A stretch of DNA of 62,408 nucleotides, filler included, from Rhizaria sp. SCN 62-66 (lineage: Eukaryota), in the NCBI GenBank assembly GCA_001724265.1. It is 4 parts of 4 records of this genome, joined end to end, with 100 filler letters (N's around TTAATTAATTAA, not from the genome) between each part and the next. Parts side by side here need not be neighbours in the genome. Positions count along the whole stretch, not along the records: positions 36,963 to 56,308 come from MEDY01000706.1; 3 more parts are not named here. One strand, 5' to 3'. This document shows positions 34,701 through 59,400 of the stretch, in pieces. Below the pieces are notes generated by a model. That model was not told the origin of the DNA. It ran no database searches and saw only the letters and a program-made list of their open reading frames with translations. Each line of letters starts with the position of its first letter. Position 1 is the first letter of the stretch. A program made the position numbers and the translations under genes.

Positions 34701-36013
34701 GCCTCTGCGGCGGTCTGCGCGAGCGCGACGAGCTCCTGCTCCAGCGCGGCGTTGCGCGTTGTGAGCGCTGCCGTGTGTGCGCGCGCCACTGCCTCGGTCT
34801 GCCGCGCCGCGGCGAGCGCTGTGGCCAGCGCGGCGTGACGGGCGGCGGCGTTAGTCGAGGCCACGGTCAGCGCCGAGAGGTCGCGGGCCAGCGCGGCGAC
34901 GGCATCCTCGGTGCGCTGCGCTGTGGCGCTCTCGGTGTTCGTGGCGCGCGCGAGGGCCGCGAGCAGGGCTGCCGTGCGCGCGCGCGCGTGCTGCCGCGCG
35001 GCGGCGCCCGCGGTCACGCGCCGCTCGAGCTCACGCACGGACTTGAGCCGTCTTTGAGCGAGAGCAACGCAGCAGCAGTTGAGTAAGAAAGTAGAGTGAT
35101 ATCATGAGTGAGTGAGTGAGCGAGCGATTCACTACTTTGTCTTAAATCAAATTGTTTTGTTTGATCTCAAGCTGATTATGATGCTTAACATCGAGATTAG
35201 GTCAGAGAGAGCCACGCCAAGGTCATGTGATTTTGTTTCGCGAACTATTTACTCGTGATACGTACTCTTTGTTTTCTGCGTCGAGCGTCCTGACGTGCTC
35301 GCGGAGCCCGCGCACGCGGTCCTGGCGCTGCGCCGTCTCCCGCGCGGCACGCTCCTTGAGCCCCGCGAAGGCCTGCAACTCGCTCGCGGCGGCCTCGAAC
35401 CGGCGCGCGTGCTGCTCCATCACCGCAGTGGCGGCCTCGCTGGCGCGCACGTCGGCTGCGGTCACCGAGAGCCTTGAGGACTGCGTCTGCGCGTGCGCAA
35501 GCGCGAGGCTCTGTGCGCTGTATTGCGCGTGCTCTACCAGGGAACCCGCGGGGTACGCATGGCCGGCGTTGCTCATCGACATGGGAGCACTGCTTCCATA
35601 GGGGCCGCTGCCAGCAGCTGCACCATTTCGACTTGCGGATTGCCACTGCGAGGCGCGGGGTGCACCGGTGGGCTGAAATTAGGGGGGGAAAGAACGAATT
35701 TATGTGAGCACGGGGCGATCAAGTGCGTTTGCGATGCGTGCGAAGTTGCGAGCGAGGGTTCGTGGGAGACGTACCAGACGCGGGTAGTAGCCGTCGACAC
35801 TCCGTGGAGTGGAAGGCATTGGTGCCTGCGTAAACGAAGTCGGAAAGTTAAGTTGCGATGAGAGCCTTGTTTACATTGAAAAAGTGAGAGAGCTGACATA
35901 TGCGCGTGGAGAGTAGGACGTACCATTTGCGTTTGAACGGCAGCGAGCGCTCGCTGCTGGCGCGGAACCATCGCGTTCGCGGCTTCGCTGCCTCGTACAT
36001 GCCCGTATTGCAT
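31589..36013 (-). CDS. Four-exon coiled-coil protein with polyQ/disordered C-terminus (exons 36013-35924, 35825-35775, 35672-35266, 35051-31589)
   Basis: Three introns each begin GTACGT and end in pyrimidine-rich ...AG. Splicing joins all exons in frame into ORF 31589..35038. Ends in TGA. A further upstream exon is possible. Confidence 0.75.
31664..31720 (-). repeat. (CAG)n microsatellite encoding polyglutamine
   Basis: Long uninterrupted TGC run on the + strand inside the CDS. Confidence 0.9.
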
Positions 36014-36567
36014 GCTAGAGGAGAAATAAATAAAGAGATAGTACGATTGTGAGCCATTATTTAATACGAGTCTTACTCTTGGCGGCGCGGAATGTGGGCA
36101 ACTGACTCTTGAGTGTTCGTTGTCGTCAGGGGGCGGGCGCAGCAAACTTGTGCAACTTGAAAAATAATGCGAACAATCCAATTGACGTCCTGGTGAAGAC
36201 AGTCAATGTGTCTAGCTGTTTGGACAATACGGTGAGATCGGTGAATATTATTTTATATAAGTGACAGCTGTTTGAAGCGAGAAAATCCACAGACGCATAT
36301 TGTGTTAAATGTGGATTTGGGAAACTTAGCAATCCACTTTGGAGCGGCCGCGGGTGTGAAATTGATGCTTTGAGGGCATAAACGAATAACTATGTATGTA
36401 TTGATTGAAAGCGTGCACAGTCGAGGTGGTGACAACACTCGCTCGATAATAACAACGCACGAAGTTAATAAATATCCTCTCCTCGCTCTCGCTCTCTCGC
36501 CTGGATTCGTCCGTGGCCTGATTCGGTGTCAAGACGCGGACGAGCGCAGTGTGTCCTAAGTCACCCC

Positions 36568-36862
36568 TCACTTGGTCCAGGTGATCTTGCGAGTCTTGAG
36601 AACAGAGAAGCGGAGGCGCTTCCAGTAGCCGGCGGCGAGTAGGCCCATGAGGCACACGCCGAGGGTCTTGACGCCCATGCGCTTGCGGTCGTCCGTCTCG
36701 GGCTCCGACACCCAGCCGAGGAAGGCGGAGACGTCCTTGGCCATCTGGGAAACGGTCGCGGGAGTGCCGTCCTCGTACTCGATCTGGCCGTCAGAGAGCG
36801 GGGGCGCCATGCCCATGGTGCCGCCGGGGAAGTAGGGGTTGAAGTGGAGGCCCGCGCGGACG
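36568..36862 (-). CDS. CYC1: Cytochrome c1 (complex III), C-terminal fragment
   Basis: [57 protein letters not shown] followed by the TM helix. Ends in TGA. 5'-truncated by the spacer. Confidence 0.95.
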
Positions 36863-36962
36863 NNNNNNNNNNNNNNNNNNNNNNNNNNNNNNNNNNNNNN
36901 NNNNNNTTAATTAATTAANNNNNNNNNNNNNNNNNNNNNNNNNNNNNNNNNNNNNNNNNNNN
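36863..36962. other. Artificial contig spacer
   Basis: N44-TTAATTAATTAA-N44. Confidence 0.97.
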
Positions 36963-37680
36963 TGAGTCAAGGATCTTGTCCACTAATTTTATATTTTCAT
37001 GGATATTTGAGAAAAATAATTTCAAAAAGTGATGATCAAAATTAAAAAAGTGATGATCAAAATTAAAAAAGTGATGATCAAAATTAAATTGATATTTCTT
37101 TCACATTAGTGGATATAAGTCTTGATTTTTATATGTTTCAGGGGAATCAGAACATCTAAAAAACAAAACCCAAATTTGGGTTTGGGTTTCTATACCCTTT
37201 GGGTTTGGGTTTGGGGTTTGAATTTGGGTTTCTAAATGAATAGCAAAAGTGAATTTATTTATTGCAAAATATCACATTTGGGTTTCTATACCCTTTGGGT
37301 TTGGGTTTGGGTTTGGGTTTGGGTTTCTAAATGAATAGCAAAAGTGAATTTATTTATTGTAAAATATGACGTTTTGTTTATACTTTTTGGATTTGGGTTT
37401 CTATACCCTTTGGGTTTGTGTTTTTAAAATGCTCTGATGACTCTGAGACATATAAAAATCAAGATTTGTGTCCACTAATGTAAAGAAAATATCATCTATT
37501 TTTTGATCATCACTTTTGAGTTTGGTTTTTAAGATGCTCTGATGGCCCTGAAACATATAAAAGTAGTACATGAGTCAAGGATCTTGTCCACTAATATAGA
37601 ATAATATCAGTTTAATGGTGATCATCACTTTTTTGATCATCACTTTTTTGATCATCACTTTTTTAATCATCACTTTTAGG
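36963..37680. repeat. rDNA spacer: imperfect inverted repeat enclosing TTTGGG tracts, plus AAAAAAGTGATGATC repeats in both orientations
   Basis: ~37090-37160 is the approximate reverse complement of ~37420-37495. TTTGGG runs span 37174-37410. TGAGTCAAGGATCTTGTCCACTAAT recurs at 36963 and 37571. Confidence 0.8.
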
Positions 37681-37814
37681 CTGAAAATCAAAACAGTAAC
37701 GTACGTGAATTTGGATCCAGGGAAATGCGAGATGCTGGGAGACTTTCCTGGAGATTGAATATCAATATGGCCCGGGGACGTACTTGAATCCAGTAGCCTA
37801 GGTTTTATCAAAAA

Positions 37815-39315
37815 TTAAAATTAGGCATACAACGGTCTTCTAATCATGCGAAAAAGATATTCCTCGGGCCCGTATCTCGCAGCGACCCCCACGACTGTCG
37901 GGTATATCAAAATTAAAATTAGGCATACGAGGGTCTTCTAATCATGCGAAAAAGATATCCCCCGAGCCCGTATCTCGATTCTAGGGTATATCAAAAAAAA
38001 ATTAGGCATACAACGGTCTTCTAATCATGCGAAAAAGATATTCCCCAAGCCCGTATCTCGAAGCGACACTCTCCCTTTACCGCTGGGTCATTTAGACACA
38101 ACATTAGGCATACGACGGTCTTCTAATCATGCGAAAAAGATATTCCCCGAGCCCGTATCTCGATTCCAGGGTATATCAAAAAAGAAGCGACCCCCCCCCT
38201 TTACCGCTGGGTCATTTAGACACAATATTAAGTACACAACGGTCTTCTATGCATATAAAAAGATATCCCCCGAGCCCGTATCTCGCAGTGATTCCCTTTT
38301 TTTTGCCGGGTCATTTAGACACAACATTAGGCATACGACGGTCTTCTAATCATGCGAAAAAGATATTCCCCGAGCCCGTATCTCGATTCCAGGGTATATC
38401 AAAAAACATACAACGGTCTTCTAATCATGCGAAAAAGATATCTCCCGAGCCCGTATCTCGAGGTGAAATTTTTAGGCAGAAACGCTAAACAGTGGCCCGA
38501 CGGCGCCTAACTAAAGTATATCAATTATTTTCTGCCTAAAAGTTCGATCCCCTGGACCAAAAAGCAAAAAAAAAAAAAAAATTTTTTTTTTTTTTTTTTT
38601 GATTTGCTGTATCACGCGACGCGCGTACGCGCGCGTGATACAGAAATTTTTTTAAATTTAACTTTATTTTTTAGTACCTTACTTTTTCTAATTCTTCGTT
38701 ATTTTAGAGCCATTTGGCTCTATCTCAAAAAAAGGTAAAAAATCGAAAAAATTCCCTCACTTTGCCGCTGGATCATTTAGACACAACATTAGACATACGA
38801 CGGTCTTCTAATCATACGAAAAAGATATCTCCCACGGGGCCGTATTTTTAAATAATCCCCCTTGCCGCTGGGTCATTTAGACACAACATTAGGCATACGA
38901 CAGTCTTCTATTCATGCGAAAAAGATACCCCCCGAGCCCGTATCTCGCAGCGACCCCCTTTTTACCGCTGGGTCATTTAGACACAACATTAGGCATACGA
39001 CGGTCTTCTATTCATGCGAAAAAGATATCCCCCGAGCCCGTATCTCGCAGCGACCCCCCTGCTGCCCCGCCTGCTGCCGGGTATATCAAAATTAATATTA
39101 GGCATACGACGGTCTTCTAATCATGCGAAAAAGATATCTCCCGAGCCCGTATCTCGCAGCGACNNNNNNNNNNNNNNNNNNNNNNNNNNNNNNNNNNNNN
39201 NNNNNNNNNNNNNNTGCTGCCCCCCTGCTGCCGGGTATATCAAAATTAATATTAGGCATACGACGGTCTTCTAATCATGCGAAAAAGATATCTCCCGAGC
39301 CCGTATCTCGAAGCG
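37815..39315 (+). repeat. rDNA spacer array of ~12 copies of a ~60-nt core at 80-125 nt period
   Basis: TTAGGCATACGACGGTCTTCTAATCATGCGAAAAAGATATYCCCGAGCCCGTATCTCG is repeated. The array is interrupted at ~38460-38760 and by an N gap at 39164-39214. Confidence 0.9.
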
Positions 39316-39894
39316 ACTCCCTACGGGTAGAGAATCCTAAACTTCGTCGTAGGTGATTATAACCATGAAATTCCGGGATATGGACTGCCTAAAAGTTTGA
39401 TCCCCTGATGCCAAAAGGTAATCCGAGCTTGGTCCAATTAGAAGGAAATCCTAAACTTCGTCAGAGTTGATGATGATTGCGAAATTCCGTGGTATGGACT
39501 GCCTAAAAGTTTAATCCCCTGATGCCAAAAGGTAAAATAAAAAAAAAAACTCAAGGGTATATCAAAAATTCATGTTAGTGGATAAGGGTCGCCTAATAAA
39601 TCAAAATATGATACCCATTTGTCCATCAGACAAACTTTTTTTGGAAAAAAAAGTGTATAGTTCCATTTCGACATACCAGGAAGATTCTTCTAGGAAAGTA
39701 TACCACTTAAGTACTAAATTTTATAGTTAGAAGAAAATGTAGGATTTGTAATCCCGGAAATCACCCCTAGGGTCCCGGTGGGGGGGCCGGTGCGGGGTGC
39801 GGCCGTGCCGGGTGGGACCCACACCGCACCGATAACGCTGGCATGCCGTTATCGTCGAGGCCCATACCCCTACGCGCGGGCGCGCGCGGGGGGC

Positions 39895-40940
39895 CTCATC
39901 ATCAAAAAAGTGATGATCAAAAAAGTGATGATCACATGGTGGGTGGCGACCACCGCAGGCCGGGTGCAGGAGGGGCACGCCGCGCAGACCCGGTTGCCCC
40001 CGGGCGAAAAAAGTGATGATCAAATGGTGGCTTGAGCAACCACCGCAGGTAGGTAGGACCTGCAGGCAGGAGGGGGCACGCCGCGCAGACACGGTTGCCC
40101 CCGGGCGAAAAAATGATGATCAAAAAAGTGATGATCAAAAAAGTGATGATCACATGGTGGGTGGTGACCACCGCAGGCTGGGTGCAGGAGGGGCACGCCG
40201 CGCAGACCCGGTTGCCCCCGGGGGAAAAAAGTGATGATCAAATGGTGGCTTGAGCAACCACCACAGAGGCAGACACGGCTGCCCCAGAGAAAAAAGTGAT
40301 GATCAAAAAAGTGATGATGGTTTGGTGGCTTGAGCAACCACCGCAGGCAGGCAGGACGGGCACCCGGAGAGGGGGTAAGACCCGCATGAAAGGTGCGCCG
40401 CGCATACACGGCTGCCCCAGAGAAAAAAGTGATGATCAAAAAAGTGATGATCAAATGGTGGCTTGAGCAACCACCACAGAGGCAGACACGGCTGCCCCAG
40501 AGAAAAAAGTGATGATCAAAAAAATGATGATCAAATGGTGGCTTGAGCAACCACCGCAGGCCAGTCTAATTAGCTTGGACACCTAATTAACTGGACCTGA
40601 AGGGGAAAAAATGAAAAAAGGATGGAAAAAGGATGGAAAAACGATCATGAAATGGTGGCCTGGGCAACCACCGCAGGCGGCACCCAACGGACAGGGGTAA
40701 GACCGATCTGCATATGAAATAGGGGAAAAAATGAAGAAAGGATGGAAAAACGATCATGAAATGGTGGCCTGGGCAACCACCGCAGGCGGCACCCAACGGA
40801 CAGGGGTAAGACCGATCTGCATGAAATAGGGGAAAAAATGAAAGAAGGGTGAAAAAAGGATCATGAAATGGTGGCTTGGGCAACCACCGCAGGCCAGTCT
40901 AATTAGCTTGGACACCTAATTAGGCTGGACCTGAAGGCAG
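39895..40940 (+). repeat. rDNA spacer/ETS repeats (GC-rich hairpin unit plus AAAAAAGTGATGATC)
   Basis: ATGGTGGCTTGAGCAACCACCGCAGG and variants are repeated about 10 times. Confidence 0.85.
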
Positions 40941-40969
40941 GAGGAAAGGAGAGAAGGGTGAAGGAATAG

Positions 40970-41280
40970 AGATCATTTAAACATTTTCCCATGAAACCAA
41001 GTCCGGTAGCCGATTAGCGGCCTGGCAACAAAGTGATTCTGAAAGAAGTGTATGAAAGCACTAATTTCTTGATCATTTAAACATTTTTTTCCATGAAACC
41101 AAGTCCGGTAGCCGATTAGCGGCCTGGCAAACGTTAGAGAGCGAAACTGATGCATAAAAGCACTAGTTTCTTGATCATTTAAACATTTTTCCATGAAACC
41201 AAGTCCGGTAGCCGATTAGCGGCCTGGCAACAAAGTGATTCTGAAAGAAGTGTATGAAAGCACTAATTTCTTGATCATAA
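40970..41280 (+). repeat. Three ~100-nt tandem repeats just upstream of the SSU gene (candidate Pol I promoter/ETS elements)
   Basis: GATCATTTAAACATTTT..CCATGAAACCAAGTCCGGTAGCCGATTAGCGGCCTGGCAA occurs three times. Function is inferred from position only. Confidence 0.75.
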
Positions 41281-42007
41281 ACAAATATTGATGTATAAAC
41301 GAGGAAATTTTACGAGAAAGATAGAGAAACAATTAAACGAATACGAGGTTGTATAAAAGAGAGAAATCTCTTTTTTAAAAGAAAAAAAGTGAATATATAT
41401 ATATATATATGTTCATAAAATACCTGGTTGATCCTGCCAGTAGTCATATGCTTGTCTCAAAGATTAAGCCATGCACGTGTAAGATCGTTCAGCGGGGCAA
41501 CCCGAAACAAAATAATCTGCGGATGGCTCATTATAACAGTTATAAACTTGGCTACCAGCTTTATCCTTAAACGGATAACACCGTCAAATGCGGTGATAAT
41601 ACGTGTCCCGAAAGAACCCGAAAGGTTCAGACGAAATGGATGTCGGAAGGACTTCATTTCTGCAATACGTTTTTGTTTCCTCGGAAACGAAGGGTATGTG
41701 GACTACTATTCTAGTAGCCTGGAAGAGGTATTTCTTACTTATCAGGTACGTTGTTTCAGTAAGGGTGAAACAAGCCAATTACGAGTACGGCGAATCAGTG
41801 TTCGATTCCGGAGAGGGAGCCTGAGAAATGGCTACTACATCTAAGGATGGCAGCAGGCGCGAAAATTACCCAATACAGAGTTTGTGAGGTAGTGACAAGA
41901 TATAACGACCTTCTATCATTTGATGGAAGGGTACCGTGTTAAAAAGCGGTTTGGAATGATTCTAGTTTAAACGTCTATTAGAGTAACAATTGGAGGACAA
42001 GTCTGGT

Positions 42008-43012
42008 TGCATTATTGGTAAGCCAGATGTCAAATACACACAACAAATCAGGTCTTGAATACATTAAAGTTTACTACATGTCGGACGAAGAAGCTTTCTA
42101 TCATCACAATACGATGGAAAATCAGGTGGAGCAGAGAGATATAATTGGTTGTTGCATACGCGAAGATTCACGTTGTTGGTATGTGAAATCGCAGAAGGGT
42201 AGATATACATCACCAGGATCTAAAAACCAAACCTGTTTTGGTTATCAACTGGCTGCGCGGAAGAAATACGGCAACCAAGCGATTCGGGCACACAAACAAT
42301 CGATGAGAGATATGATGATATCTCATTTGTGTGGTGCTCCAGGATCAAGATGTGTAAACCCAGATCACCTCGTTATTGAGGAAAAGAAAGTTAATGATGA
42401 ACGGGTTCACTGCCACTTCTTCATGAACAAAATCATGAAACAATGGAAAAATCCAACAGCAAAGAAGCACTTTGTGACCAATATAAAGATTCTCTTGAAC
42501 GACTTTGTAGATAAATACTGTCCACATGAACCAAAATGTGGATCCGTTAGCAAGTAAATGTGTATCTTGGCAGAAAGTCAGATATGAGCACTGACTGTAC
42601 TACTGTAAATTGCGGGAAAACCCTCGTAAGCTCTAGTATACCGCGGTCACACAAGCAATTGGTGATGCAGCAGATAATATAACGATTATCGGATGGTAAT
42701 AAGTACTAGAGAAGGAGTTGTGGCTCCACACAACTGTAACCCGGGGACAATCCGCAGCCAAGCCTCTTTCCTGATTGATTATGATGATCATAATCATGAT
42801 CATCACCATCATAAGAAAAAAAAGGGAAAGAGGAAGGTTCAGAGACTATAATCAGTTGGGGGAGTCAAAAAGAAAGAGACTTCTTAAGGTATAGTCCACA
42901 CCCACCAGAAATGGTGCAATCATTCTATTAAGAGTTGTGCTCAACTCCTAGGGATTGATTTTGACTCTAGAACTAGCTGAGGAAATGCTGCTAGTTATGA
43001 GTGGTAATTTGG
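42008..43012 (+). mobile_element. Group I (IC1) intron at S516 with homing endonuclease gene
   Basis: Exons GTCTGGT^GCCAGC, terminal G, and core elements AAATTGCGGG, AATCCGCAGC, CAGAGACTA and TAAGGTATAGTCC. Confidence 0.95.
42027..42557 (+). CDS. His-Cys box homing endonuclease (S516), 176 aa
   Basis: SHLCGAPGSRCVNPDHLVIEEKKVNDERVHCH...CPHEPKC, resembling the Naegleria S516 endonuclease family. Confidence 0.92.
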   Translation: MSNTHNKSGLEYIKVYYMSDEEAFYHHNTMENQVEQRDIIGCCIREDSRCWYVKSQKGRYTSPGSKNQTCFGYQLAARKKYGNQAIRAHKQSMRDMMISHLCGAPGSRCVNPDHLVIEEKKVNDERVHCHFFMNKIMKQWKNPTAKKHFVTNIKILLNDFVDKYCPHEPKCGSVSK

Positions 43013-43025
43013 GCCAGCACCCGCG

Positions 43026-43477
43026 AAAACCATGCTGGAATCCGCGGAGCAGCAGGAAAAAACCTGAAGTGCTTAATAAACTGCTAAACATCATCAAATT
43101 GCTGGAAGTCCCTAAAGCTGTTTGGTACCGTCCTAACGCCGAAAGGAGAAGTTAGTGACACCATAATGAAAGTTGTGGGTGTGGTGATAATCTAAACAGA
43201 TGTTTCCTTATTGCACATTGAAACGCAATGGGTAATCAGCAGCCAAGTCCTAAAGCAGGCTTCCCTCTTGTTTACTATAAACAAGGGCCTGATATGGATG
43301 CAGTTCACAGACTAAATGGTGGTGGGTCGTTGATGAAATGAGTAGCTAAAATGATAATGCGAAAACGGAAGCGGCTTAAGATATAGTCGGTCCTGCTAGG
43401 AAACTAGTGGGGGTTCGTAACCAATATTTTGTACAAAAAAATTAGTCAAAAGAATGATTATAATATTGGTTATAACG
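43026..43477 (+). ncRNA. Group I (IC1) intron at S529
   Basis: Exons CCCGCG^GTAATTCC. P1 CCGCG/CGCGG, P10 GCTGGAAT/ATTCCAGC, and core CACAGACTAAAT and TAAGATATAGTC. Confidence 0.93.
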
Positions 43478-44119
43478 GTAATTCCAGCTCCAAAAGCATA
43501 TACTAAAATTGCTGTAGTTAAAACGCTCGTAGTTGATAAAAGGTATTATTAATCGGAGCCTGTTTAGTTTCATCTATGTATATTGGCTATTCCAAGTCTT
43601 TATATGTTTAAAAATGGTATTCGTTTCCCAAAGAGACGAGTATTAGGGGGCTAAGCCATTTGGCGTATTAAAACCTTTTTTAAGGTGTCAGTCTTCTTCC
43701 ACCTTTTAAAAGGGCGTAGGCTTGATTAATGATTGCCGTTGAAAACCGTGAACAAATTAGTGTGTTTCAAACAAGCAGCGTGAAATCGATATCATTTTGG
43801 TAACGATTTTGAGTTTGAATAATTTAGCATGGTACTTTACGACTTTCTTTTGCAAAAAAGGAAGAATAAAATAGAAGGGATAGAGGACTCTGGTATTGCG
43901 CGTCTAGAGGTGAAATTCCGATATTTTCGCAAGACGAACGGAGGCGTAAGCGGTCGAGTCCATCGTGTCTTCATTGATCAGGAACGAGAGTCAGGGGATC
44001 GAAGATGATTAGATACCGTCGTAGTCCTGACTGTAAACGATGCCAACTCAAGTTCAGGTATGAAACATATAAATTGATCTTCTTGGAATTGACGGGAAAC
44101 CATTAAGTTATTGGGTTCT

Positions 44120-44167
<48 letters not shown>

Positions 44168-44194
44168 ACACCACCAGGAGTGGAGTTTGCGGCT

Positions 44195-44653
44195 TTTGTT
44201 GTATTGACTTAGGCCGAAATTGTTACAATAAAAGTTGTAGCAAGTCCATAGTGACTAAAATGCTAGCGTCACTATTGGGCAACACCGTCCAATTGCTCGA
44301 AGGTCCTGTTAGGCAATAACTACCGTCCTAGTGCCGAAAGGTCTAGCTAGTGACACCATAGGGAAACTTGTGGGTATGGTAAGAATGTTATTGATAGGGA
44401 TAATGAGCAGCCAAGTCCTTAGTTAGCAAGTTGCGCCCCAAAAGCAACTTTGGTAATATGGATGCAGTTCACAGACTAAATGGCGGTGCAACACACTAGT
44501 TTGTGTTGTAAGATATAGTCGGGCCCACTTGAAAAAGTGCTTCTATTAAAGTCTAAACTAGCAAGGTGTGATAGAAGAGGCTAAATATCTGAAGAGTTGT
44601 GGCAAGTGACAACTCTGAAAGATATATGTGTGTATATTAGCTGGGATAAACCG
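44195..44653 (+). ncRNA. Group I (IC1) intron at S956
   Basis: Exons GCGGCT^TAATTCGAC, IGS GGCCG, conserved core, terminal G. Confidence 0.93.
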
Positions 44654-44964
44654 TAATTCGACTCAACGCGGGAAAACTCACCAGGACAGGACAGTGTCGA
44701 GATTGACAGGTGAAAGAGTCCTTTCTTGATTCACTGGTTGGTGGTGCATGGTCGTTCTTAGTTCGTGGAGTGATCTGTCTACTTAATTGTGCCAACGAAC
44801 GAGACCTTGACCCTTAATTAGGTACCAACAATGATAGCAATATTATTGGGCTTTTCCTCGGAAAAGATTGGGTTACCGGGCTTCGAAAGAAGCTTTTACG
44901 CTTTAAGGGGACAAGACGAGGTCATATTTGACTTAGCGTAAGGAAGAGCAAGGCAATAACAGGT

Positions 44965-45515
44965 TAAAAGTGGAATATGTCAAGGAAAAGGGGACAATAT
45001 TCCTGGTATTCTTAGGTTGAATTAGATCAACCAAAAAAATAAATCATGAAAAAAATATTTATTTTTTTGTAATACCAAACAGGCCTGAGTAATTTGAAGA
45101 TGAATTACTAGTCGCTTCAACGTCTCTTTTGACGTATGTTGTGGCAACACCATCAAATTGCGGGAACCTCCTTAGAGCTTTCAATACCAAACATATCTTG
45201 AAAAAGAATATGTGGCCAAGGTAGCGCCTTGGGTACGGTAAAAAGTTGAAAGATTGGACAATCCGCAGCCAAGTCCTAAATCAGGCTTCTCTTTTTTAAG
45301 AATTCCTGACAAGGATGCAGTTCACAGACTAAATGTTGGTGGGTCGTTAATGAACAAAGTAGCTAAACAATAATGCGAACCGGGAAACGGCCTAAGATAT
45401 AGTCGAAGCCACCAAGAAATTGTGTGCTTAAGAGAGGAAGGTTTTATGGGTAATGCTTGACCGGAGAGCTCTTAAGGATAAAAGAAAGAGATATTTTTCT
45501 TTTATTGGGAACTTG
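44965..45515 (+). ncRNA. Group I (IC1) intron at S1199
   Basis: Exons AACAGGT^CTGTAATGCCC. The IGS ACAGGCCTG is at ~45080, after a ~115-nt P1 loop. Conserved core. Confidence 0.93.
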
Positions 45516-45721
45516 CTGTAATGCCCTTTAGATGCCCTGGGCGGCACGCGTACTACAATGTTATTTACAAGGAGCAAAAACAGTTTTTTCTGATCCAGCG
45601 CCTTAAAGGTGTAGGTAATCTGTAATAAGTAACAAGACTGGGATAGATGTTTGTAAATACATCTTGAACGAGGAATTCCTAGTAAGCGTAAGTCATCATC
45701 TTGCATTGATTACGTCCCTGT

Positions 45722-45754
<33 letters not shown>

Positions 45755-45865
45755 GGAATGTTGAAATGAACCTAATGGATAGGTGATATTAGTTGAATTT
45801 TGTCATTTGTAGGAAGGAGAAGTCGTAACAAGGTCTTCGTAGGTGAACCTGCGTAGGGATCATTC

Positions 45866-46913
45866 ATATAATAATAATGATGATCATTGAAGAAGCAATT
45901 CTTCTCCGAGGTCGTTTCCCTCTTGTATCATTTATATAATGATCATTGAAGAAACAATTACAGGTCGTTACCTTTTTAAGGTGTTTCCCTGATCAAAAAG
46001 AAACAAAACTTTGAGCGGTCTTTACCTTTTATCTTTAAGATAAGGTGTTTCCCCACAAAGAAACGAAATTTTCGAGGGTTTTCCCTCTCCTGTATCATTT
46101 ATATAATGATCAGAAAGAAACAATTCTTCGATATCTTTCTCTCATGTATCATTTAATAATAAGAATGTTGTGGGATTCGTCTCACAGTTTTTGTTTTTCC
46201 CCCCAACCTCCCTCTCCTCTCTTTTTTTATGGTCACAAAAAAGAGAGAAGAGGGAGGGAAAGACGAAACATTCATATAAAATGATCATGATGATCAAAAT
46301 GATCATAAAGAAAAGTATCATTTAATAAGAATGTTGTGGGATTCGTCTCACAGTTTTTGTTTTTCCCCCCAACCTCCCTCTCCTCTCTTTTTTGTAACCA
46401 TAAAAAGAGAGAAGAGGGAGGGAAAGACGAAACATTCATATATAATGATCAAAATGACCAAAATGATCATAAAGAAAAGTATCATTTAATAAGAATGTTG
46501 TGGGATTCGTCTCACAGTTTTTGTTTTTCCCCCCAACCTCCCTCTTCTCTCTTTTTTTATGGTCAGAAAAAAGAGAGGAGAGGGAGGGAAAGACAAAGCA
46601 TTCATATATAATGATCAAAATGACCAAAATGATCATAAAGAAAGAAAAGTATCATTTAATAATAAGAATGTTGTGGGATTCGTTTTCACGTTTTTCCCCT
46701 GTCAATCTCTCTCTTTCCTCTCTTTTTTGACCAGAAAAAGAGATTCGTCTCCTCTCTTTTGGACAAAAAAGAGAGAAAAGGGAGGGAAAGATGGAAACAT
46801 TCATTTATATAATGATCATTGAAGAAAAGTTTCGCAAGGTCTTTCCTTTTTTTTAATCTAACAAGAGAGAGATTCGTCTTCTCTTAAGAGAAAAAAAGGG
46901 AAAGACCGATTCA
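45866..46913 (+). repeat. ITS1 (~1.05 kb) with ~165-170 nt tandem repeats
   Basis: Units start at 46146, 46315, 46479 and 46649. Each has a pyrimidine/purine hairpin CCTCCCTCT..TTTTT / AAAAAGAGA..GAGGGAGG. Confidence 0.85.
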
Positions 46914-47066
46914 AAAAGCTATATGGTTGATGACTAGGTTCGTGTAACGAGGAAGAACGTAGTGAATTACGAAATTTCTTATGAATTGCAAACCCTCCGG
47001 GGGATTACTACGGTATTCTAATGCTCTCTCGCACTCAATAATATGAGTAACCTTGTTTGATTGTCA
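46914..47066 (+). rRNA. 5.8S rRNA (divergent; ends approximate)
   Basis: CGAGGAAGAACGTAGTGAA...ATGAATTGCA motifs, located between SSU and LSU. Confidence 0.8.
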
Positions 47067-47237: not shown

Positions 47238-48187
47238 AACAAGGATTCCCTTAGTAGCGGCGAGTGAAAAGGGAAAAGTCCATCCTGAGGGGTGTTAAAA
47301 CCCGATGCGGGGTAAAAAGGTAAATCTAGAAACCGTATTATTATTAATGTATCCGGAAATGGAATATGTCTACTCTTTTGAGGACCAAAGAAAGTGAAAG
47401 TCTTTGATTAATAATGATATAGGGGATAAGATTTTAACCAACGAGTACAGTTGTTTGATAATACAGCTGGAATATGGGAGGTAAATTCCTTTTAAGACTA
47501 AATACACTACACGAAACCGATAGTTCACAAGTACCGCGAGGGAACGGTGAAAAGCACTCTGATAAGAGGGTGAAAAGCGTCTGAAACTATATAGCGTTTA
47601 ATCGTAATGATTACGCTTCGAAACACATTTTAACGGATGTGCAATACTAATAAATAGTATGTATGCATGCCGATGTGATACTACTTGTTCGAAAGAACAG
47701 TTTTTGAGGGTAATAAATCGACTATCAAGACTATGACGAATAAAGAAAACAAAGTTACGAGAGGGGTTTTCCGTTAAAAGTAACCAATCTTACTAAGGTT
47801 GTCTTTTTTTATTAAGAGTATGGATGTCAATTATCCCTTTCAAGGTAGTTATCAAATTGATGAAGCGTTTGTTACGTCCCGTCTTGAAACACGGACCAAG
47901 GAATTTGTCGTTTATGCAAGTCATTCGGTTTTTAAAACCGAAGGACATAATGAAAGTGATTTTTTCTTCGAGTATGTACAATACCCACCTTACTAGTAGA
48001 TATCCGACACAGGTAACAAGATATCATAGTCAAGAGTGTGAGTATAAACGGCAAGACCCGAAAGGTTGTGATCTATACTTGACATGGTAGAAGTCAAAGG
48101 AAACTTTGATGGAAGACCTCCGAACGGTGCTGACGTGCAGATCGCTTGTCAGAGTTGAGTATAGGGGCGAAAGACTCATCGAACAAT

Positions 48188-49294
48188 CAAAAAAGAAACG
48201 GAAACCAAATGCCCAAACACAAACGTGATAAAAGCGAAACTGATATCGAAGCAAAAAAGGCAAAAAATGAGAAAATTCAAAACTTTTCCTTAAGTTTTAA
48301 GGAACAGTTCCCAAAATCCAACGTGATCAACGCATATACGATTAGACAGTTGGAGGGATTCTACAAGAATTTGAAAAAAGAAGCAACAAAAGAGAGTCCA
48401 CGATTATATGGCATTGATGTCAATAACTTGAAAAAATTGATGTCTATTGTCAATACTCGAGACGGCACGTACTGGTACAAGTACGTGTACTGCCTAGTTT
48501 CTCACTTGAAACCCCAAAAAACAAGCCATCCTCGGTATCAAACAAGAGCGCCACCCAAGGAAAAGGAGTACATGATAAAAAAGTACTGTTCCGTAAAGGA
48601 ACTGGATTGCCAAGTTAAACTTGCTGTCCACCATATCTCGTATGTAATAGCATACGAGAAAGAGCTTGATTTTTTGGGTTCAGGATCAGGAAACAGCAAA
48701 GTTGTTGAGCATTTGTGCGATGTAAAAGGTTGTTTCCGTAAAGGACATATTAACCCTGTTTTGGTCACACCCAAACAGAACGTCGACAGAGCCAATAGCA
48801 GATGCAAAGGTTGGATATTGGTTGTTGCTAATGGAGTAATTATTACAGAAAAATGTCTATGTAATCATCATCCAGCCTGTGTTGCGGTATCCGTAGTCGC
48901 AATAAACTAAGTGTTTGCGAGTATTTCATTGTATCTTAAAAGGTTGTTAATAGGGCACTAAAAGGGTGACCCTAGTCTTGTTATCTTTACAAGGCGACAC
49001 TGTCAAATTGCGGGAACACCCTAAAGCTTTCACTACCAAGCATACCTCGAAAGAGAGTATGTGGCCGGGGTAATGACCTAGGGTATGGTAAAAACGTGAA
49101 AGATGCTTAGAGTCAAAAGAAAAAGCAATAACAATGGGCAATCCGCAGCCAAGTCCTAAAAAACCAAAAAAATGTATTAAATTTTATTGGTAATATGGAT
49201 GCAGTTCAGAGACTAAATGGCAGTGGGTCTTTATATGAAAATGTAAAGGCTTAAGATATAGTCCCCACCATACGGAAACGTATGGAGTTTTGGG
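48188..49294 (+). mobile_element. Group I (IC1) intron at L798 with homing endonuclease gene
   Basis: Exons GAACAAT^CTAGTAGCTGG. The IGS GTTGTT at 48943 lies after the ORF. Full IC1 core at 48990-49265. Confidence 0.93.
48209..48910 (+). CDS. His-Cys box homing endonuclease (L798), 233 aa
   Basis: VHHISY...EHLCDVKGCFRKGH...KQNVDR..RC...CLCNHHPAC and a basic N-terminus. First ATG inside the intron. Confidence 0.87.
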   Translation: MPKHKRDKSETDIEAKKAKNEKIQNFSLSFKEQFPKSNVINAYTIRQLEGFYKNLKKEATKESPRLYGIDVNNLKKLMSIVNTRDGTYWYKYVYCLVSHLKPQKTSHPRYQTRAPPKEKEYMIKKYCSVKELDCQVKLAVHHISYVIAYEKELDFLGSGSGNSKVVEHLCDVKGCFRKGHINPVLVTPKQNVDRANSRCKGWILVVANGVIITEKCLCNHHPACVAVSVVAIN

Positions 49295-50752: not shown

Positions 50753-51744
50753 GAACATTTATAATAGTTTTTAATGCCAAGCAAAAAATCAAAACCAAGG
50801 GCTTGTACGGTTGATAATTGTAAAAAGGCATACAGAAGATTCGTTAAGGAAATAATGGATAATGATCTGCTTGAGATTGCTGGCAATGAATATTGCTTCT
50901 TCTATGATTTATGCGGTTTTAGGAACCAATATAGAATTGGTTACAAGAAGAACGGGAGTAAATACTTTCGAGTAAAAACCCACAGAATGTGGTTTTACTC
51001 GTCTGCTGAATTGATCGCAATGGCGGAAGATCACAAGAATTACACGGTGAGCCACTTGTGTCACGGAAGCGGATGTATTAATCCAAATCATCTTGTTCTG
51101 GAATCGTTAGCTGTAAACAAATCGAGGAACGTTTGTCCAGCTGGATCAAAATGTTGGCACGAGCCAAAATGCATTAGAGAAGGACATCAATTAAGCAATC
51201 AGAAGATAGCTTATTGGGATGGATGCAAAATGTCGAAACAGAGTAAATAACCATTTTCCAAAACGTTTTAAAGCTATTTTGAGAGAGATAGGTGGGTGCC
51301 GGCACTTGTTATAAAACCGCCAATAACAAGGAACGGAATAAACACTATGCCACCTAGTCAACGTTTAGTTGGCAACACACCTGGTTGCGGAGAGTCCTAC
51401 CTGGCAACATTTTAATATAGTTGCAAAGATAGGGAAGTATTATCTACCACCTCATCAAGGAAGTAGGGGCGAATGAGCTTATCGAGTACTTGTTTGAGGG
51501 ACCACGGTTAATGCCCGTTCCCAATGGTAATCAACGGTAATGCTAATGGATAACCCGCAGGCGAGTCTGCCTTTACAGACCGTCTCATCGACTGGTAAGG
51601 TGTGCGTTTACAAGTAAAAAAGAGAAAGAGATAGTTTATACTTGTAGGCGTAAGGTACAGTCAGCACCACGGGTAACCGGCACTGGATCTTGAAAAAAAC
51701 CAGTGGCTTTTTTTTTGACTTTTCAAAAAAGGCGGATTAATGCG
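50753..51744 (+). mobile_element. Group I intron at L1926 (IE-like core) with homing endonuclease gene
   Basis: Exons CTCTCTT^AAGGTAGCC. IGS GAGAGAG at 51281. Core CTGGTTGCGG, AACCCGCAGG, CGACTGGTAAGGTGTG and TAAGGTACAGTC. Confidence 0.92.
50774..51250 (+). CDS. His-Cys box homing endonuclease, I-PpoI-like, 158 aa
   Basis: THR...SHLCHGSGCINPNHLVLESLAVNKSRNVCPAGSKCWHEPKC parallels I-PpoI [30 protein letters not shown]. Confidence 0.93.
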   Translation: MPSKKSKPRACTVDNCKKAYRRFVKEIMDNDLLEIAGNEYCFFYDLCGFRNQYRIGYKKNGSKYFRVKTHRMWFYSSAELIAMAEDHKNYTVSHLCHGSGCINPNHLVLESLAVNKSRNVCPAGSKCWHEPKCIREGHQLSNQKIAYWDGCKMSKQSK

Positions 51745-52735: not shown

Positions 52736-53174
52736 GTTGAGTTTGACTCTAGTCTAATTTGGTAAAATGACGCGAGGGATGTAGTATAGGTGGTAGAGCA
52801 ATCAACAATGAAATACCACTGCTTTTGGTTGTCATTTGACTCACTCTATGAAAAGCAAATCCCTTTCGGGGGATCGTTTAACAAGTGGTTGAATTCTTAG
52901 GAATTTAATTATGCACTGAATTGATAGGGTACAGAATTAGGTGGGGAGTTTGGCTGGGGCGGCACATCTGTTAAACGATAACGCAGGTGTACAAAGGTTA
53001 GCACAAGTTGGTCAGAAACCAACTGTAGCGGATAAGGCCATTAGCTAGCCTGACTAGTATTTTCAGTACAAGTACTAGCTGCGAAAGCGCGTCCTTACGA
53101 TCCTTTAGTGAAATTATATTTTATAGTCTTTCAGAATTTGAAGCTAGAGGTGTCAGAAAAATTACCACAGGGAT

Positions 53175-53303
53175 CTCCATATTTTATCCTTTGAAACAAA
53201 TGGAAATTGTAATAGAATTTAAGTGACTGTTTAAGAAGAAAAATATATATATAAAATGATACAGTCCCATGTAAAAAAAGAGAAGTAAACAAACAATACT
53301 TGG
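53175..53303 (+). ncRNA. 129-nt degenerate group I-like mini-intron at L2449
   Basis: Splits ACAGGGAT^AACTGGC, follows a U and ends in G. Only a P7-like GACTGT/ACAGTC pairing is recognisable. Confidence 0.8.
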
Positions 53304-53327
53304 AACTGGCTTGTGGCAGCCAAGCGT

Positions 53328-53768
53328 TCATAAAATATTATCATGATCATATATGATTATGTTAATATTTTGCTATGAGCGCAAGCATTAGTGAAAAGCT
53401 ATGTGCTAGTCACCGGGTCTGGTGGCAACATTGTCAAATTGCCGGAACATCTTGTTAGGTCCTTGGTACCGCCTTTGCACTGAAAAGTGTGATAAAAATG
53501 GCACCACGGTGAAAGTCGTGGGTATGGTAATAATCCAATGAATAAAGATAATCGGCAGCCAAGTCCTAAACCTCCTTTTGTGTGAGGCATGGATGCAGTT
53601 CACAGACTAAATGGCAATGGGTCATTTTCATCATTAGATTATGGCTTAAGATATAGTCGGGCCCTCTGGAGACAGAGCTGTTGGATAAAGAATGGATGAC
53701 AGACCCAATTTCTATCTATTCCCGAGCCAACAGAGGAGAGTTTATTATAAACTCTCTGGGACAAACCG
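53328..53768 (+). ncRNA. Group I (IC1) intron at L2473
   Basis: Exons CAAGCGT^TCATAGCGAC. The IGS GCTATGAGCGC pairs with both exons. Conserved core. Confidence 0.92.
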
Positions 53769-54444: not shown

Positions 54445-55189
54445 TCAATATGGGTAAGAGATTTAGTAATTATTTGACCTTTAGTGTTAAATAACTACTA
54501 AAGCTCAGTACGAGAGGAACTGTTTTGGTCATCCGCTTTTCAGCAGGGATTAAGAGTATAACCTTGTTTGGAACGATGGGAAGAATAATCAAGTATGACT
54601 GAATGCCTCTAAGTTTGAATTCAGTGTTTTATAAGATGGAATTCGTTTTGGCCCTGGGAAGAATAATTAATGATAGCGCATTAATAATAAGTTAACTTGG
54701 AATTGAGTACATGTGGTAGCCGTTGGGGAGATAGCAAGTAAGATGTTTGCAAGTAATTCAAATTGGTATTAATATAGCCGTGAATCACTGGAATACCACC
54801 AGTTGGGACCTATAAGCAATTAAATGCATTTTTGTAGGGTCATTAAACAATCACTTGTAAGTCTTAGAGATTTGCAGGAATCGATTTGTTGAGAGGAGGT
54901 CGTAATGAAAGATTTTTCATTTACGAGCCTCTTAAATTTAATCATATAATAATATGATTCACGGTTACAGTATATATGTAAACTTCGTAGGGCATATAAC
55001 TGTTGAACAATGTGTTTTAGCACTTTCATAAGGACACATTTGTTCTAGTGTGTTTGAGCACTTTCATAAGGACACACTTATTCTGTAGGTATGATTTCTG
55101 TAGGTATGATAATAGAAGACAAGACATTTGTTGTGGAGTGTGCGTCTTTTTAGATGTTTTTTCTCTCTTGGAGAAAAGGGATGATGATT

Positions 55190-56030
55190 ACAAAGTTTGG
55201 AGGTCGTTTCGAAGGAAACAAATTCCAAGGTCTTTTCCGTTTGCTCATTTTTAAGTTGCGCGAGCTGGCATCCACCGAATCTAATTAACCTCTTTTCAGC
55301 AAGAAAAGATAGATACGGTCCAAACCCAGTCTATCCCAATTTCGTCAAGAAAAGGGATACTTTTCCACAAAAAATGAACATGAACATTAAGAAGGAAATT
55401 TCCAAGGTATTTCTCTCTTGTATCATTTAATGTTGCTCCTTCCCATTTCTCTCCTTTTTGGCAAAAAAAGAGGTGAACAATGCATCAAAAGAATAGGAAA
55501 TTCCAAGAGCTTTCCCTTTTGCTCATTTATAATAGATGCGGTCTGGGGTCCATCGAATCTAATTAACCTCTTTTCGTCAAGAAAAGAGATAGATTTTTGC
55601 CCAGTCTACAAAACCCTCTTTCGTCAAGAAAAGGGTCAGCATAAAATGAACACAAAGAAGGAAAGCACAAAGAATGGGGTTTCTAGCATATTTCTCCGTT
55701 ATATGAAATCCAGTAAGTAGATGGTTTTCTCTCTTCTTATGTACAAGAAGAGAAAAGGGGCAAATTTTCCTTCATATGTGTCGATATTACAAACTTTTGG
55801 GGGCGTTTCCAAGGAAACAAATTCTAAGGTCTTTCCCTTTATATGGTCATTTAACATTGTGGTCTGGGGTTTATCGAATCTAATTACCCTCTTTTCAGCG
55901 AGAAAAGAGATAGATTTTTGCCCAGTCTTTCCCTCTTTCGTCAAGAAAAGGGTTATTGAGTTTCCATAAAATGAACATTAAGAAGGAAATTTCCAAGGTT
56001 TTTCTCCATTGTATTATCTAATATGAATGT
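55190..56030 (+). repeat. 3' spacer, three degenerate ~300-nt repeats
   Basis: CGAATCTAATTAMCCTCTTTTC...CCCAGTCT...TTCGTCAAGAAAAGGG recurs at ~55275, ~55553 and ~55874. Confidence 0.8.
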
Positions 56031-56308
56031 TGTTCCTTGCCATCTTTCTCTTTTTTACAAAAGAGATGGACATGTAGCAAGAGAAATTCTACAAAGTCGT
56101 AACTCTAGGGGGTTGTCAATGTCTATTAGCCGTTGATCGTAAAAGTGGTCTGTTACAAGGGGGGAAATCGATTAACAATAAGAGTTGTGGATATTGTTCT
56201 ATGATGGATACCGCAAATAGCGTTTACTCGTTGCAGTATCATCATTTAATGGTTGAAGGAATGTGGAGGATTGTTAAAAGATCAACTTTTTGTTTCGTGG
56301 CTTTTGTG

Positions 56309-56408
56309 NNNNNNNNNNNNNNNNNNNNNNNNNNNNNNNNNNNNNNNNNNNNTTAATTAATTAANNNNNNNNNNNNNNNNNNNNNNNNNNNNNNNNNNNN
56401 NNNNNNNN
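56309..56408. other. Artificial contig spacer
   Basis: N44-TTAATTAATTAA-N44. Confidence 0.97.
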
Positions 56409-59400
56409 GAGCGCGAGGCCGCCGCGGCCGCGGAGGCACGCGCCGAGGCAGAGCGCGCGCGCGAGGCGCTTGCGGCCCGCGGCGTGCGCGCGGAGGAAGA
56501 CGCGGCTGCGCGCGAGCAGGCCGCTGTCGCCCGCGCGGCGGCCGCGGCGGCCCGCGAGGCGGCGCTGCGCGAGAGTCTGGCGCAGACGCGCGAGGAGCTG
56601 GCCCAAGCGCAGGCACGCGCGCGCGCCGCGGGGTCGGAGCTGGAGAGCGCGGCCGAGCGCGCAGAGCACCTGGCCGGCATGGACGCGCAGCGGCGCCGGC
56701 TCAAGCTGGCGCTCGACGCGGTGAAGCGCGAGCTGCTGCGGCGCGCCGAGGCCGCGGGCGTGCGCGTTGAGCGCTACACCGACGAGACCGACAGCAACGA
56801 GTTCGTTCACAACAACGACGACGATGATACTGGTGGTGACGCGCACAACAGAAGCGCGATATCGCCGATGACCCCGCGCAAGGGCGCCCACGGCGGGTTC
56901 AGCGCGGCGACGACGCCGCAGCGCACGCGCTCAACCGCGGCGCGCACGCCCGGCGGGACGTTGCCCGCACTGCTGTCCCCCGGCGCGCCCGCGGTGCGGC
57001 CCGCGTCGCCCGTGCGCGCGAGCGAGGTCGACGCCGTGCTGGGCGGCCGCGGCTTCGGGCTCTGGGGCTGCGATGCGCTCGACGCGGCCTATGCGGCCAT
57101 GGCGCGCGCGCTGCGTCAGGCCGAGCACGAGCTGCAGATGGAGCGACTACGCGCGGGCGACGCGCAGTCGGCGCACGAGGGCGAGGCAGCGCGGCTCAAG
57201 CGGCTCGCTGACGAGCTCACCGCGGCGATGCGGCGTGCGGAGGATCAGGCGCGCGGCGCCGACGAGCAGCTGCGCACGCTCGCGGCGACGCAGGCCGAGG
57301 CCGCCGCGCTGCGGACCAAGGTCGCCGAGCTGACGCGCCTGGCCGAGACGGCCGCGGCGGACGCGGCGGCCGCGGCGCGCGGCAAGGCGGATGAGGGCGC
57401 GCGCGTACGCGACGCCGAGGCCGCACGCGCCGCCGCCGAGGCCGAGGCCGCCAAGTGGCGTGAGGACGCCGGGCGCGCGCGCGGCGACCTGGAGGCCGAG
57501 CTCGCGCGACTGTCAGCCGCCGTGGACGAGCTGACGGTGCGGAACCGGTCGCTGACGCGGCAGCTGAGCGGGCGGGAGGACCAGTTGTCGGAGCTGGAGG
57601 AAGTGATTCGAAACCTCGAGGCGCTGCTCGGCAAGGAGCGCCGCCAGCAGGCCGCGCACGGCGAAGACTTCACAGCCATCATGCGGCGCAAGGAGTCTGT
57701 GCTTGCGCACCACACCGAGGAGATGGAGCGGCTCCGCGGCGAAATGCAGGCCGCGATGCAGCAGCAGCTGGACCACGTGCAGCGGCTCTCGGATACGGTG
57801 CAGCGTAACGAAGAGGCGCTGGAGCGCGCGCAGAGCGAGATCACGGCGCTCGAGACGCAGCTGGCCGCCGCCGTGGCCGCCGAGGCGCGCGCGGGGGCCG
57901 AGGCCGCGCGCTGGCGCCAGTGGGGCGAGGACCACGCCGCCGCGGTCGAGGACGTCGACACGCTGCGCCGCGATTGCAACGAGGCCCTGGAACGCGCGAG
58001 CCGCGCTGAGGCTGCCGCGGCCGACGCCGCCGAGTGCCGCGCCGCCGTCGCGCGCACGCAGTCGGCACTGCTAGACTCGCGCGCGCAGCTGGGCGCGGCC
58101 GTGCGCGAGCTCGAGGACCAGCGCCTCGCGGCCGCCAAGGACCGCCGCGCGCTGGCCAGCGAGGCGGAGCAGCTGGCCGAGGGCAAGGCCGCGGCCGAGC
58201 GCGCCGTCGCCGGTGCACGCGACGCCGCGCGGGCCGCCGAGGTGCGGGCCGACGAGGCGCGCGCCGCGGCGCACCGCATCGCGCTGGAGCGCGACGAGTG
58301 GGAGCGCGCGACCGCCGACGCGCGGGCCGACGCCGTGCGCGCGCGCGAGACCGCGGCCGAGGCGCAGGCGCGCGGGCGCGAGCTGGCCGCCGCCGTCGAG
58401 GCGCGCGAGGCCGCGGCGCGCGCGGTGGCCGCGGAGGGCGAGCGCGCCGCTGCTGGTGCTGCGCAGCGCGCAGCGCTGATGGACGCCGCGGCCGCGCAGC
58501 ACGAGCAGGCGCTGTCGCGCGCGCGCGAGGACGCTGCCGCTGAGCAGACGCGGTTGGGCGTAGCCGCCACCGATGCCGCCGCGCGTGCCGGTGCCGCTGA
58601 GGAGCGCGCAGACGCGCTAGAGCGCGCGCTGGCCGCCGCAAACGAGCGCGTGCGCGTCGCAGAGAACGCGCGCGAGGCCGCCGAGCGCGAGCAGCGCGAC
58701 TTCGTTGCCGTGCGCGAGCGCGCCGAGGCGCTGCTGTCGGCCAAGGCCGGCGCCGACGCCGCTGCTGGCGACGCCACGCGCAGCAAGGAGCACGCCGAGG
58801 CGCGCGCACGGGCCGCCGAGCGCCGCGCACGCACGGCCGAGCTCGAGGCGCGCGCGCTGCGCGACAGTCTGGCCGCCTACCACGACGGCGAGCGCAGCAA
58901 GCTCGCGGTGCTCGGTGGCGGCAACGCGGGCGCCGACGGCAACGGCAGTAGCAGCGGCGGTGCGCGTGTGCGCGACGTCACCGCGAGCGGGCCCTTCGCG
59001 CGCTCGCTGCCGTGGCTCGCCAACAGCAACGCCGGTTCTGCCAACAGCCGTGGTATGGACGCGGGCGCGATCGACTCGGACGATGAGGACGCCGGCACCG
59101 CTGCCATTGCCCTGGCCGGTGTCCCCGGAGTGCTGCCGCCGGCCGCGCCCGCCGAGGTCGCCGCTAGCGAGGCCTATCCTGCCTTCTCGGACGCGCCTTC
59201 TGACCCAGCCCTCGCGGTCGCCGCCGCCACGCGCGCCGCCGCCCACGCCGCCGCGGCCGCGCACACGGCGGGCCCCGCGGGCGAGGACGCCGGCGCCGGC
59301 GCGCGCGCGGGCGCGGACATCAACGCCGCGGCCGCGGGCGCCGCCGAGCGCGCGCGTGCCGTAGACAGCGCAAACGCCGTGCTCGACGGGTGGCTGAGTC

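Follow-up and report, generated by a model that had tools for sequence, protein, structure and literature searches.

Ribosomal DNA unit of the window

The window, that is, the whole stretch of DNA analyzed here (62,408 nt), contains an rDNA unit from Rhizaria sp. SCN 62-66 in which Rfam models placed the SSU at 41421-45865, the 5.8S at 46915-47066, and the LSU from 47173 onward. The unit had approximately 40% G+C and was located between flanks of 60-77% G+C that carried long open frames and eukaryote-type genes, with sharp jumps in G+C between rDNA and flanks at 36000-41400 and 55000-56500. One flank gene encoded a full ABCC-type transporter, for which close relatives were metagenomic only and the best named matches were eukaryotic MRP proteins with at most 36% identity. 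This single unit could be an rDNA copy on a chromosome, a mini-chromosome that became integrated, or a product of joining during assembly. Repeats were present in several regions, specifically TTTGGG-type repeats and a palindrome with 108-nt arms at 37067-37562, many tandem repeat families of 80-185 nt upstream of the SSU, and, in ITS1 (46157-46723), a 164-nt tandem repeat in roughly three copies, with inverted repeats inside it. The LSU stretch or part of it was found in 20 of the 24 listed sequencing runs, with at least half of its words in 19, which has no bearing on the insert described below. Six of the listed runs were RNA (LSU shares 0.47-0.62), and the 15 studies involved covered wastewater, sludge, bioreactors, biofilm, and soil.

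Nine group I introns with complete cores were detected in the window rDNA using Rfam. Comparison with an intron-free relative and E. coli placed LSU introns other than the insert near L798/799, L1926, L1949/1950, L2066, L2473, and L2584/2585. In the SSU, two group I matches (66 and 101.8 bits) were 50 nt apart at 42503-43410 and could represent a twin arrangement or two separate introns at neighboring sites. The L1926 intron (50753-51744, 992 nt) gave no Rfam group I match at E ≤ 1 and was considered as a second coreless intron, a candidacy that we rejected based on a 158-aa His-Me (His-Cys box) homing-endonuclease ORF (50774-51250; PF05551, E 3e-16) and GACUGG/ACAGUC elements identified by eye; it is probably a group IE intron missed by the Rfam model. 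Additionally, a 254-aa ORF at 48146-48910 ran from the exon into the L798/799 intron and had a weaker match to the PF05551 homing-endonuclease family (24.9 bits, just below the cut-off of 27).

A small insert in the peptidyl-transferase loop

Alignment to the Rfam eukaryotic LSU model extended up to ...UUACCACAGG at 53171 and restarted with AACUGGCUUGUGG at 53304, leaving a remainder of GAU plus 129 nt, and the gap of the insert fell between model positions 2827 and 2828. With E. coli K-12 rrlH as the numbering reference, the 5′ exon end GGGAU (53170-53174, plus strand) ends with U2449 at 53174 and AAC starts with A2450, such that the 129-nt insert (53175-53303, plus strand) lies exactly between U2449 and A2450 of the eukaryotic LSU rRNA gene. 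Sliding of the borders was impossible (T|C on the 5′ side and G|A on the 3′ side). The base preceding the insert is U (GGGAU|C), which makes a group I-type 5′ border, and its final base is G (53303, plus strand), at the omega-G position. A 24-nt exon, A2450-U2473 by comparison with E. coli (53304-53327, plus strand), separates the insert from a group I intron with a complete core at L2473 (53328-53770, plus strand; RF00028, 122.9 bits at 53351-53679). Five bases, TCATA, are repeated at both borders of the latter, and only placement after U2473 gives a preceding U together with a terminal G. The original prediction, made from this DNA alone, had placed an insert with a final G between U2449 and A2450 and an L2473 intron 24 nt downstream, both of which were borne out, and the positions that it gave for five short motifs (ATCCTT at 53186, AAATTG at 53204, GACTGT at 53225, ACAGTC at 53261, and GTCCC at 53264) were all correct.

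The stretch U2449-A2451 lies in the central loop of the peptidyl-transferase center. An insert between U2449 and A2450 would break this loop, and therefore it must come out.

We scanned for relatives using the two exon flanks with 100-130 free bases between them, after GGGAT. The matches were two metagenome contigs, L001 and L002, and a short contaminant contig, L003, all from other assemblies and with inserts at the same junction, of 114 nt in L001 (1629-1742), 102 nt in L002 (3197-3096, minus strand), and 112 nt in L003 (81-192). L003 is a 719-nt contig with a eukaryotic LSU rDNA fragment, found in a MAG labeled Candidatus Nitrosocaldus, and is a binning contaminant. The scan design finds insert-bearing relatives only, so that presence in all four rDNAs and the U at position -1 are true by construction, and the count of four carries no information on whether the insert is obligatory in the clade. 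The last base was left free by the scan pattern and was G in all four inserts (product of G frequencies, 0.0012). Scans of viral contigs for the ligated-exon form and for inserts of 70-100 nt gave no match, in a collection where rDNA is not expected. Taken together, the assemblies place a putative intron of 102-129 nt in no fewer than four uncultured eukaryotes that are related to one another.

The exons beside the insert were canonical and near-identical across all four rDNAs. Pairwise identity of the inserts was at shuffle level in four of six pairs and modestly above it in the other two, window-L001 (62 versus 54 ± 2.2) and L002-L003 (64 versus 54 ± 2.4). GU-repeat stretches were present in the L002 and L003 inserts. 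The four inserts thus appear to have drifted almost to randomness and were barely alignable.

One explanation to be weighed against these comparisons is that the copy in the window is not used, being part of an rDNA unit that is silent or in decay, or resulting from an assembly artifact such as a collapsed longer intron. The single unit of approximately 40% G+C between stretches of 60-77% G+C, alongside which other rDNA copies may exist, and a run of N at 39208-39214 would be compatible with this. However, a small insert of differing size and sequence was present at the same junction in four independent assemblies, the adjacent exons are canonical and near-identical in all of them, and every other intron in the window has either an intact core or a homing-endonuclease ORF, which renders the unused-copy explanation very improbable.

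The small size also raises other kinds of intron, and spliceosomal introns about as small occur in ascomycete rDNA according to the available text of PMC8527467. Borders of the GU...AG type were, however, found in none of the four inserts, which start with CU, AU, CU, and CU and end with GG, AG, GG, and GG. In bulge-helix-bulge introns, which are cut by the tRNA splicing endonuclease, the first bases of the intron pair with those of the 3′ exon in a 4-bp helix, and both splice sites occupy 3-nt bulges flanking it. Here, no complementarity to ACUG, at the beginning of the 3′ exon, was seen for the bases after the 5′ border (UCCA, UCGA, UCAA, and UCAA) of any insert. We give either kind of intron hardly any credence.

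Searches for a group I core within the insert were negative. Specifically, RF00028 gave no match at E ≤ 1 around the window insert (52880-53360 searched), and none at E ≤ 10 around that of L003. The original prediction held that there was no room for P4-P6, and this was supported by the lack of a covariance-model match and by the spacing between the R-like and S-like elements, with only 12-52 nt between the helix strands in the four inserts. Since there is no room for P3-P6 and P8 and the insert is invisible to the group I covariance model, splicing on its own is not expected; without P3, P4-P6, and P8, the insert should not act as a ribozyme alone. The folding energy of the window insert was not unusual relative to shuffles (z = +0.48 alone and +0.26 to +0.79 with flanks), and three of the four inserts folded no better than shuffles. 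Rfam matches to snoRNA and miRNA families had scores far under their thresholds and were dismissed as chance.

A conserved element and its possible pairings

Despite this divergence, GACTG upstream and AGTCC downstream formed the sole ordered complementary 5-mer pair common to all four inserts. Any such pair arose in 5 of 5000 shuffles, and a G+C-rich pair in none of 5000. Because inserts occur at the same junction in three other rDNAs and share the GACTG...AGTCC pair, the insert is, to judge from these sequences, more than a product of chance. The tests of conserved pairs were performed with direct scripts, rather than RNAalifold or pair counting, and with four sequences and invariant exons covariation cannot discriminate between structural readings; MAFFT failed to bring either the R elements or the 3′ ends into register across the four inserts.

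In the window insert, the putative 5′ strand of a P7-like helix is GACUGU (53225-53230, plus strand), in an R-like position, GACUG being present in all four inserts, and the 3′ strand is ACAGUC (53261-53266, plus strand). The two form a hairpin in both the MFE and the centroid structure of the insert folded alone, and the P7-like hairpin also appeared in the MFE of L002. The GACUG/AGUCC helices of the four inserts had 6, 4, 6, and 5 bp, with loops of 30, 52, 12, and 28 nt, respectively. The helix of L001 has 4 bp and was outside its MFE fold, in which GACU belonged to another, stronger hairpin.

The downstream element, with its 5′ neighbors, reads UGAUACAGUCC, UGAAACAGUCC, AGAUACAGUCC, and UGAACGAGUCC in the four inserts. 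In the seven IC1 introns of the window, the S element at J8/7-P7 was AAGATATAGTC in every case, and the L798 intron carries GATATAGTCCCCA, which continues ...GTCCCCA. In the window insert, a J8/7-like AUGAU (53256-53260, plus strand) precedes the 3′ strand of the helix, and the corresponding ATGATACAGTC differed from the S consensus by two mismatches, a marginal result equaled in 1355 of 20000 shuffles. The L003 insert has AAGATACAGTC, with one mismatch (equaled in 42 of 20000 shuffles), while the best matches of L002 and L001 were at other places in the insert and were not significant. Among control spacer tiles, 1 of 53 had two or fewer mismatches to this consensus.

In all four cases, pairing is possible between the bases that follow AGUC and the 3′ end of the insert (CCA:UGG, CUUU:AAAG, CC:GG, and CCG:UGG). 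In the window this P9.0-like CCA is at 53267-53269 (plus strand) and its partner UGG at 53301-53303. These pairings have 3, 4, 2, and 3 bp, and 16 of 5000 shuffles reached the sum of 12, in a test chosen after the data had been seen. P7, J8/7, and P9.0 make up the part of a group I intron that holds the terminal G. The conserved element may thus consist of remnants of the G-binding helix P7 and of J8/7 with a P9.0-like contact to the 3′ end, a reading that covers the conserved GACUG and GAUA and to which we assign about one half of the weight.

A second reading involves the 5′ exon. GUCCC (53264-53268, plus strand), which overlaps the P7-like strand, can pair with GGGAU of the 5′ exon to form a U.G wobble. 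It was present in three of the four inserts, with GUCCU in L001, so that a U.G-forming GUCC(C/U) is found in all four, 78-90 nt into the intron and overlapping the P7-like strand. The exon:GUCCC pairing appeared in the MFE of the window insert with flanks, extended as ACAGGGAU/GUCCC-A-UGU, and as GGGAU/GUCCC in that of L003. GUCCC may therefore be a P1 guide to GGGAU, in which case the intron would amount to a P1 helix with an extended loop, followed by a short tail and the terminal G; this reading covers the CC after GUC and receives about one third of the weight. The two readings share GUC and their pairings are mutually exclusive, although the P7-like and exon-guide pairings may alternate. 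Energy-based folding, as modeled here, does not decide between them, and the remaining weight falls on both or neither.

The candidate 5′-proximal guide AUCCUU (53186-53191, plus strand) pairs with AGGGAU, and the splice-site pair would be U-A, not U.G. ATCCT was in this 5′-proximal position in two of the four inserts, and among the relatives a similar UUUAUCCU was present in L001 only. With respect to the motifs that the original prediction had proposed as vestiges and guides, the P7-like GACTGT/ACAGTC corresponds to the GACTG/AGTCC pair of all four inserts and GTCCC has counterparts in the relatives, while AAATTG was at that place in one insert of four and ATCCTT lost ground on account of its distribution and its U-A pair.

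These shared features also bear on the idea that the insert is excised like a transcribed spacer without ligation, leaving the LSU rRNA in two pieces broken in the peptidyl-transferase loop. LSU rRNAs in several pieces are known from some protists and organelles, and the near-shuffle identity, the GU repeats of L002 and L003, and the absence of a significant fold in three of the four inserts resemble spacer-like evolution, with nothing more direct in its favor. On the other hand, spacer excision gives no reason for the terminal G in all four inserts or for a GACUG/CAGUCC pair that looks like the G-binding helix of group I introns, and we know of no break at U2449/A2450 in any cytoplasmic ribosome. 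We therefore regard it as improbable.

Proposed removal with help in trans and comparison with known introns

The U before the insert, its final G, the GACUG/GAUACAGUC-like elements, and the lack of a core support group I descent and a need for help, as the original prediction had held in proposing removal with outside help; its further suggestion, that the helper might be a neighboring ribozyme such as L2473, was not supported. The L2473 intron was found in none of the three relatives, and its guide, UAUGA|GCGC as read by eye, pairs with UCAUA and GCGU, its own site. The L002 contig, which comprises a complete LSU, the 5.8S, SSU positions 581-1831 (the first 580 SSU positions lying outside it), and 2.5 kb past the LSU, yielded no group I hit (E ≤ 1) over its full 8040 nt. 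Likewise, Rfam searches detected no group I intron in the complete LSU of L002 or in that of L001 from model position 1309, both LSUs were close to model length, and the mini-intron was the only insert found within either. The MAG holding L003 also had no group I match, an uninformative result given that only one contaminant contig is expected there. Given that L2473 is missing from all three relatives and that no group I ribozyme was detected in the 8 kb of L002, a mechanism in which the neighbor helps is, on present sequences, not general.

A broader form of this idea is that the mini-intron serves, through a P1 of GGGAU:GUCCC and the terminal G, as substrate for a complete group I ribozyme located elsewhere; the actor would be L2473 in the window, with another copy taking that role in the relatives. 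The proximity of L2473, 24 nt away in the window, is in line with this, as is the GUCCC pairing with the 5′ exon, which gives the canonical U.G in three of the four inserts, is present in the MFE structures described above, and has a counterpart in L001, where GUCCUU pairs with AGGGAU. Moreover, a ribozyme downstream of the LSU in L001 has GUCCC at the guide place, which would fit GGGAU. That GUCCC can, however, be accounted for by a local GGGGU approximately 60 nt upstream, GUCC[C/U] is at the guide position in no window intron, and the guide of the window L2473 fits its own exons. The absence of L2473 from all three relatives and of group I matches at E ≤ 1 from the 8040 nt of L002 also stands against a separate ribozyme, which would leave the conserved GACUG and the GAUA before CAGUC without explanation. 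We consider such a ribozyme unlikely.

The ribozyme of L001 (2639-2955, 88 bits) is complete, is located approximately 350 nt past the LSU 3′ end and outside any rRNA, and is homologous to the L2473 intron of the window, with ...GCAG GUCCC at the guide place. The GGGGU upstream is a possible 5′ exon of its own, and the ribozyme, considered with its flanks (2560-3500), may be an ectopic, perhaps reverse-spliced, intron copy in the 3′ spacer. From approximately 3136, L001 has an apparent open frame by eye, yet the stretch tested contained two stops and the ORF is unconfirmed.

We consider it probable, with appreciable doubt, that the insert derives by strong reduction from a group I intron at L2449, and that it is non-autonomous and removed with trans-acting help. 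Such an intron would have retained the U before the 5′ splice site and the terminal G, one element of ~11 nt (UGAUACAGUCC and variants) with the complementary GACUG upstream, and a few base pairs joining the nucleotides that follow AGUC to the intron 3′ end, and would have lost P3, P4-P6, and P8. Because the insert would break the peptidyl-transferase loop, we infer that it is cut out and that the exons are ligated, with the terminal G and the conserved element presumably acting as removal signals. The missing catalyst would come from elsewhere, in the form of a protein or of an RNA supplying the scaffold, rather than from the adjoining L2473. The insert persists in lineages that lost, or never had, other LSU introns. 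Somewhat more tentatively, at less than even weight, we propose that a group I remnant of ~100 nt, keeping either P7/J8-7/P9.0 and the omega-G or a P1 guide and the omega-G, would persist in the peptidyl-transferase loop throughout a whole clade of uncultured eukaryotes because the cell supplies the remainder of its catalyst in trans.

If true, this would be the smallest group I-type intron known and a natural ribozyme turned into the substrate of a dedicated nuclear splicing machinery, whether that consists of a protein maturase or of a scaffold provided by a separate RNA. Nearly devoid of RNA structure and placed where excision has to be precise, such an intron would offer a very clean substrate for finding the helper factor, would help to define the minimal RNA signals read by that factor, and would show the extent to which a ribozyme can decay without being lost. 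In the open-access literature, supplementary tables aside, we found no description of an intron of ~100 nt at L2449, or of one at any rDNA site with only such a module. The original prediction had spoken of an undescribed assisted-splicing system; host-dependent, core-truncated nuclear group I introns are already in print, and assisted splicing of crippled nuclear group I introns has thus been described, so that the novelty lies in how far the intron has been reduced.

Such introns are known from lichen fungi, in which, according to the available text of PMC8527467, group I introns missing on average ~100 nt fail to self-splice yet are excised in vivo, with dedicated host machinery being postulated. 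Like the present insert, they are shortened and are without catalytically needed parts; they cannot self-splice and do not occur in mature rRNA, as would be expected of the insert. They differ in retaining group I-like folds and a length of a few hundred nucleotides (~300 nt in the one probed), the present insert being two to three times smaller, as well as in the organisms and rDNA sites concerned. The spliceosomal introns of ascomycete rDNA are alike in small size and in their location in rRNA genes, but differ in having spliceosomal signals and GU...AG borders, the latter found in none of the four inserts.

Another close comparison is with the Physarales, in which the L2449 and L1949 introns are described as obligatory, vertically inherited, and not self-splicing in the accessible parts of PMC3679873, PMC3511172, and PMC8395846, and in Didymium both are spliced and their exons ligated (PMC13182076, as far as available). 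According to PMC3679873, no helper factor has been identified for any host-dependent nuclear group I intron. The L1949 introns, often without P8 (PMC3679873, PMC8395846), resemble the present case, as proposed, in being nuclear group I introns with partial core loss that do not self-splice and are removed in vivo, but there only P8 is missing, the scaffold domain is kept, and the introns are large. The L2449 introns, of group IC1, occupy the same site after U2449, have long been kept, and do not self-splice in vitro; the original prediction had characterized myxomycete L2449 introns as large, obligatory, and host-dependent, in agreement with what is available of PMC3511172 and PMC3679873. Physarales rDNA also has optional mobile introns at L1926, L1949, and L2066, and the window has introns near those sites. 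The hosts appear to differ in that the rDNA of Physarales is an extrachromosomal linear mini-chromosome, while that of the window lies between G+C-rich genes. The introns themselves, compared here by description, differ in their extent. In Physarales a conserved catalytic core of ~120 nt carries large peripheral extensions, the largest cited intron being 2483 nt (PMC3511172, in the text available), whereas here the whole insert is 102-129 nt without P3-P6 and P8. Were the reduced-intron explanation correct, L2449 would be a site of fixed introns in two shapes, huge in Physarales and tiny here.
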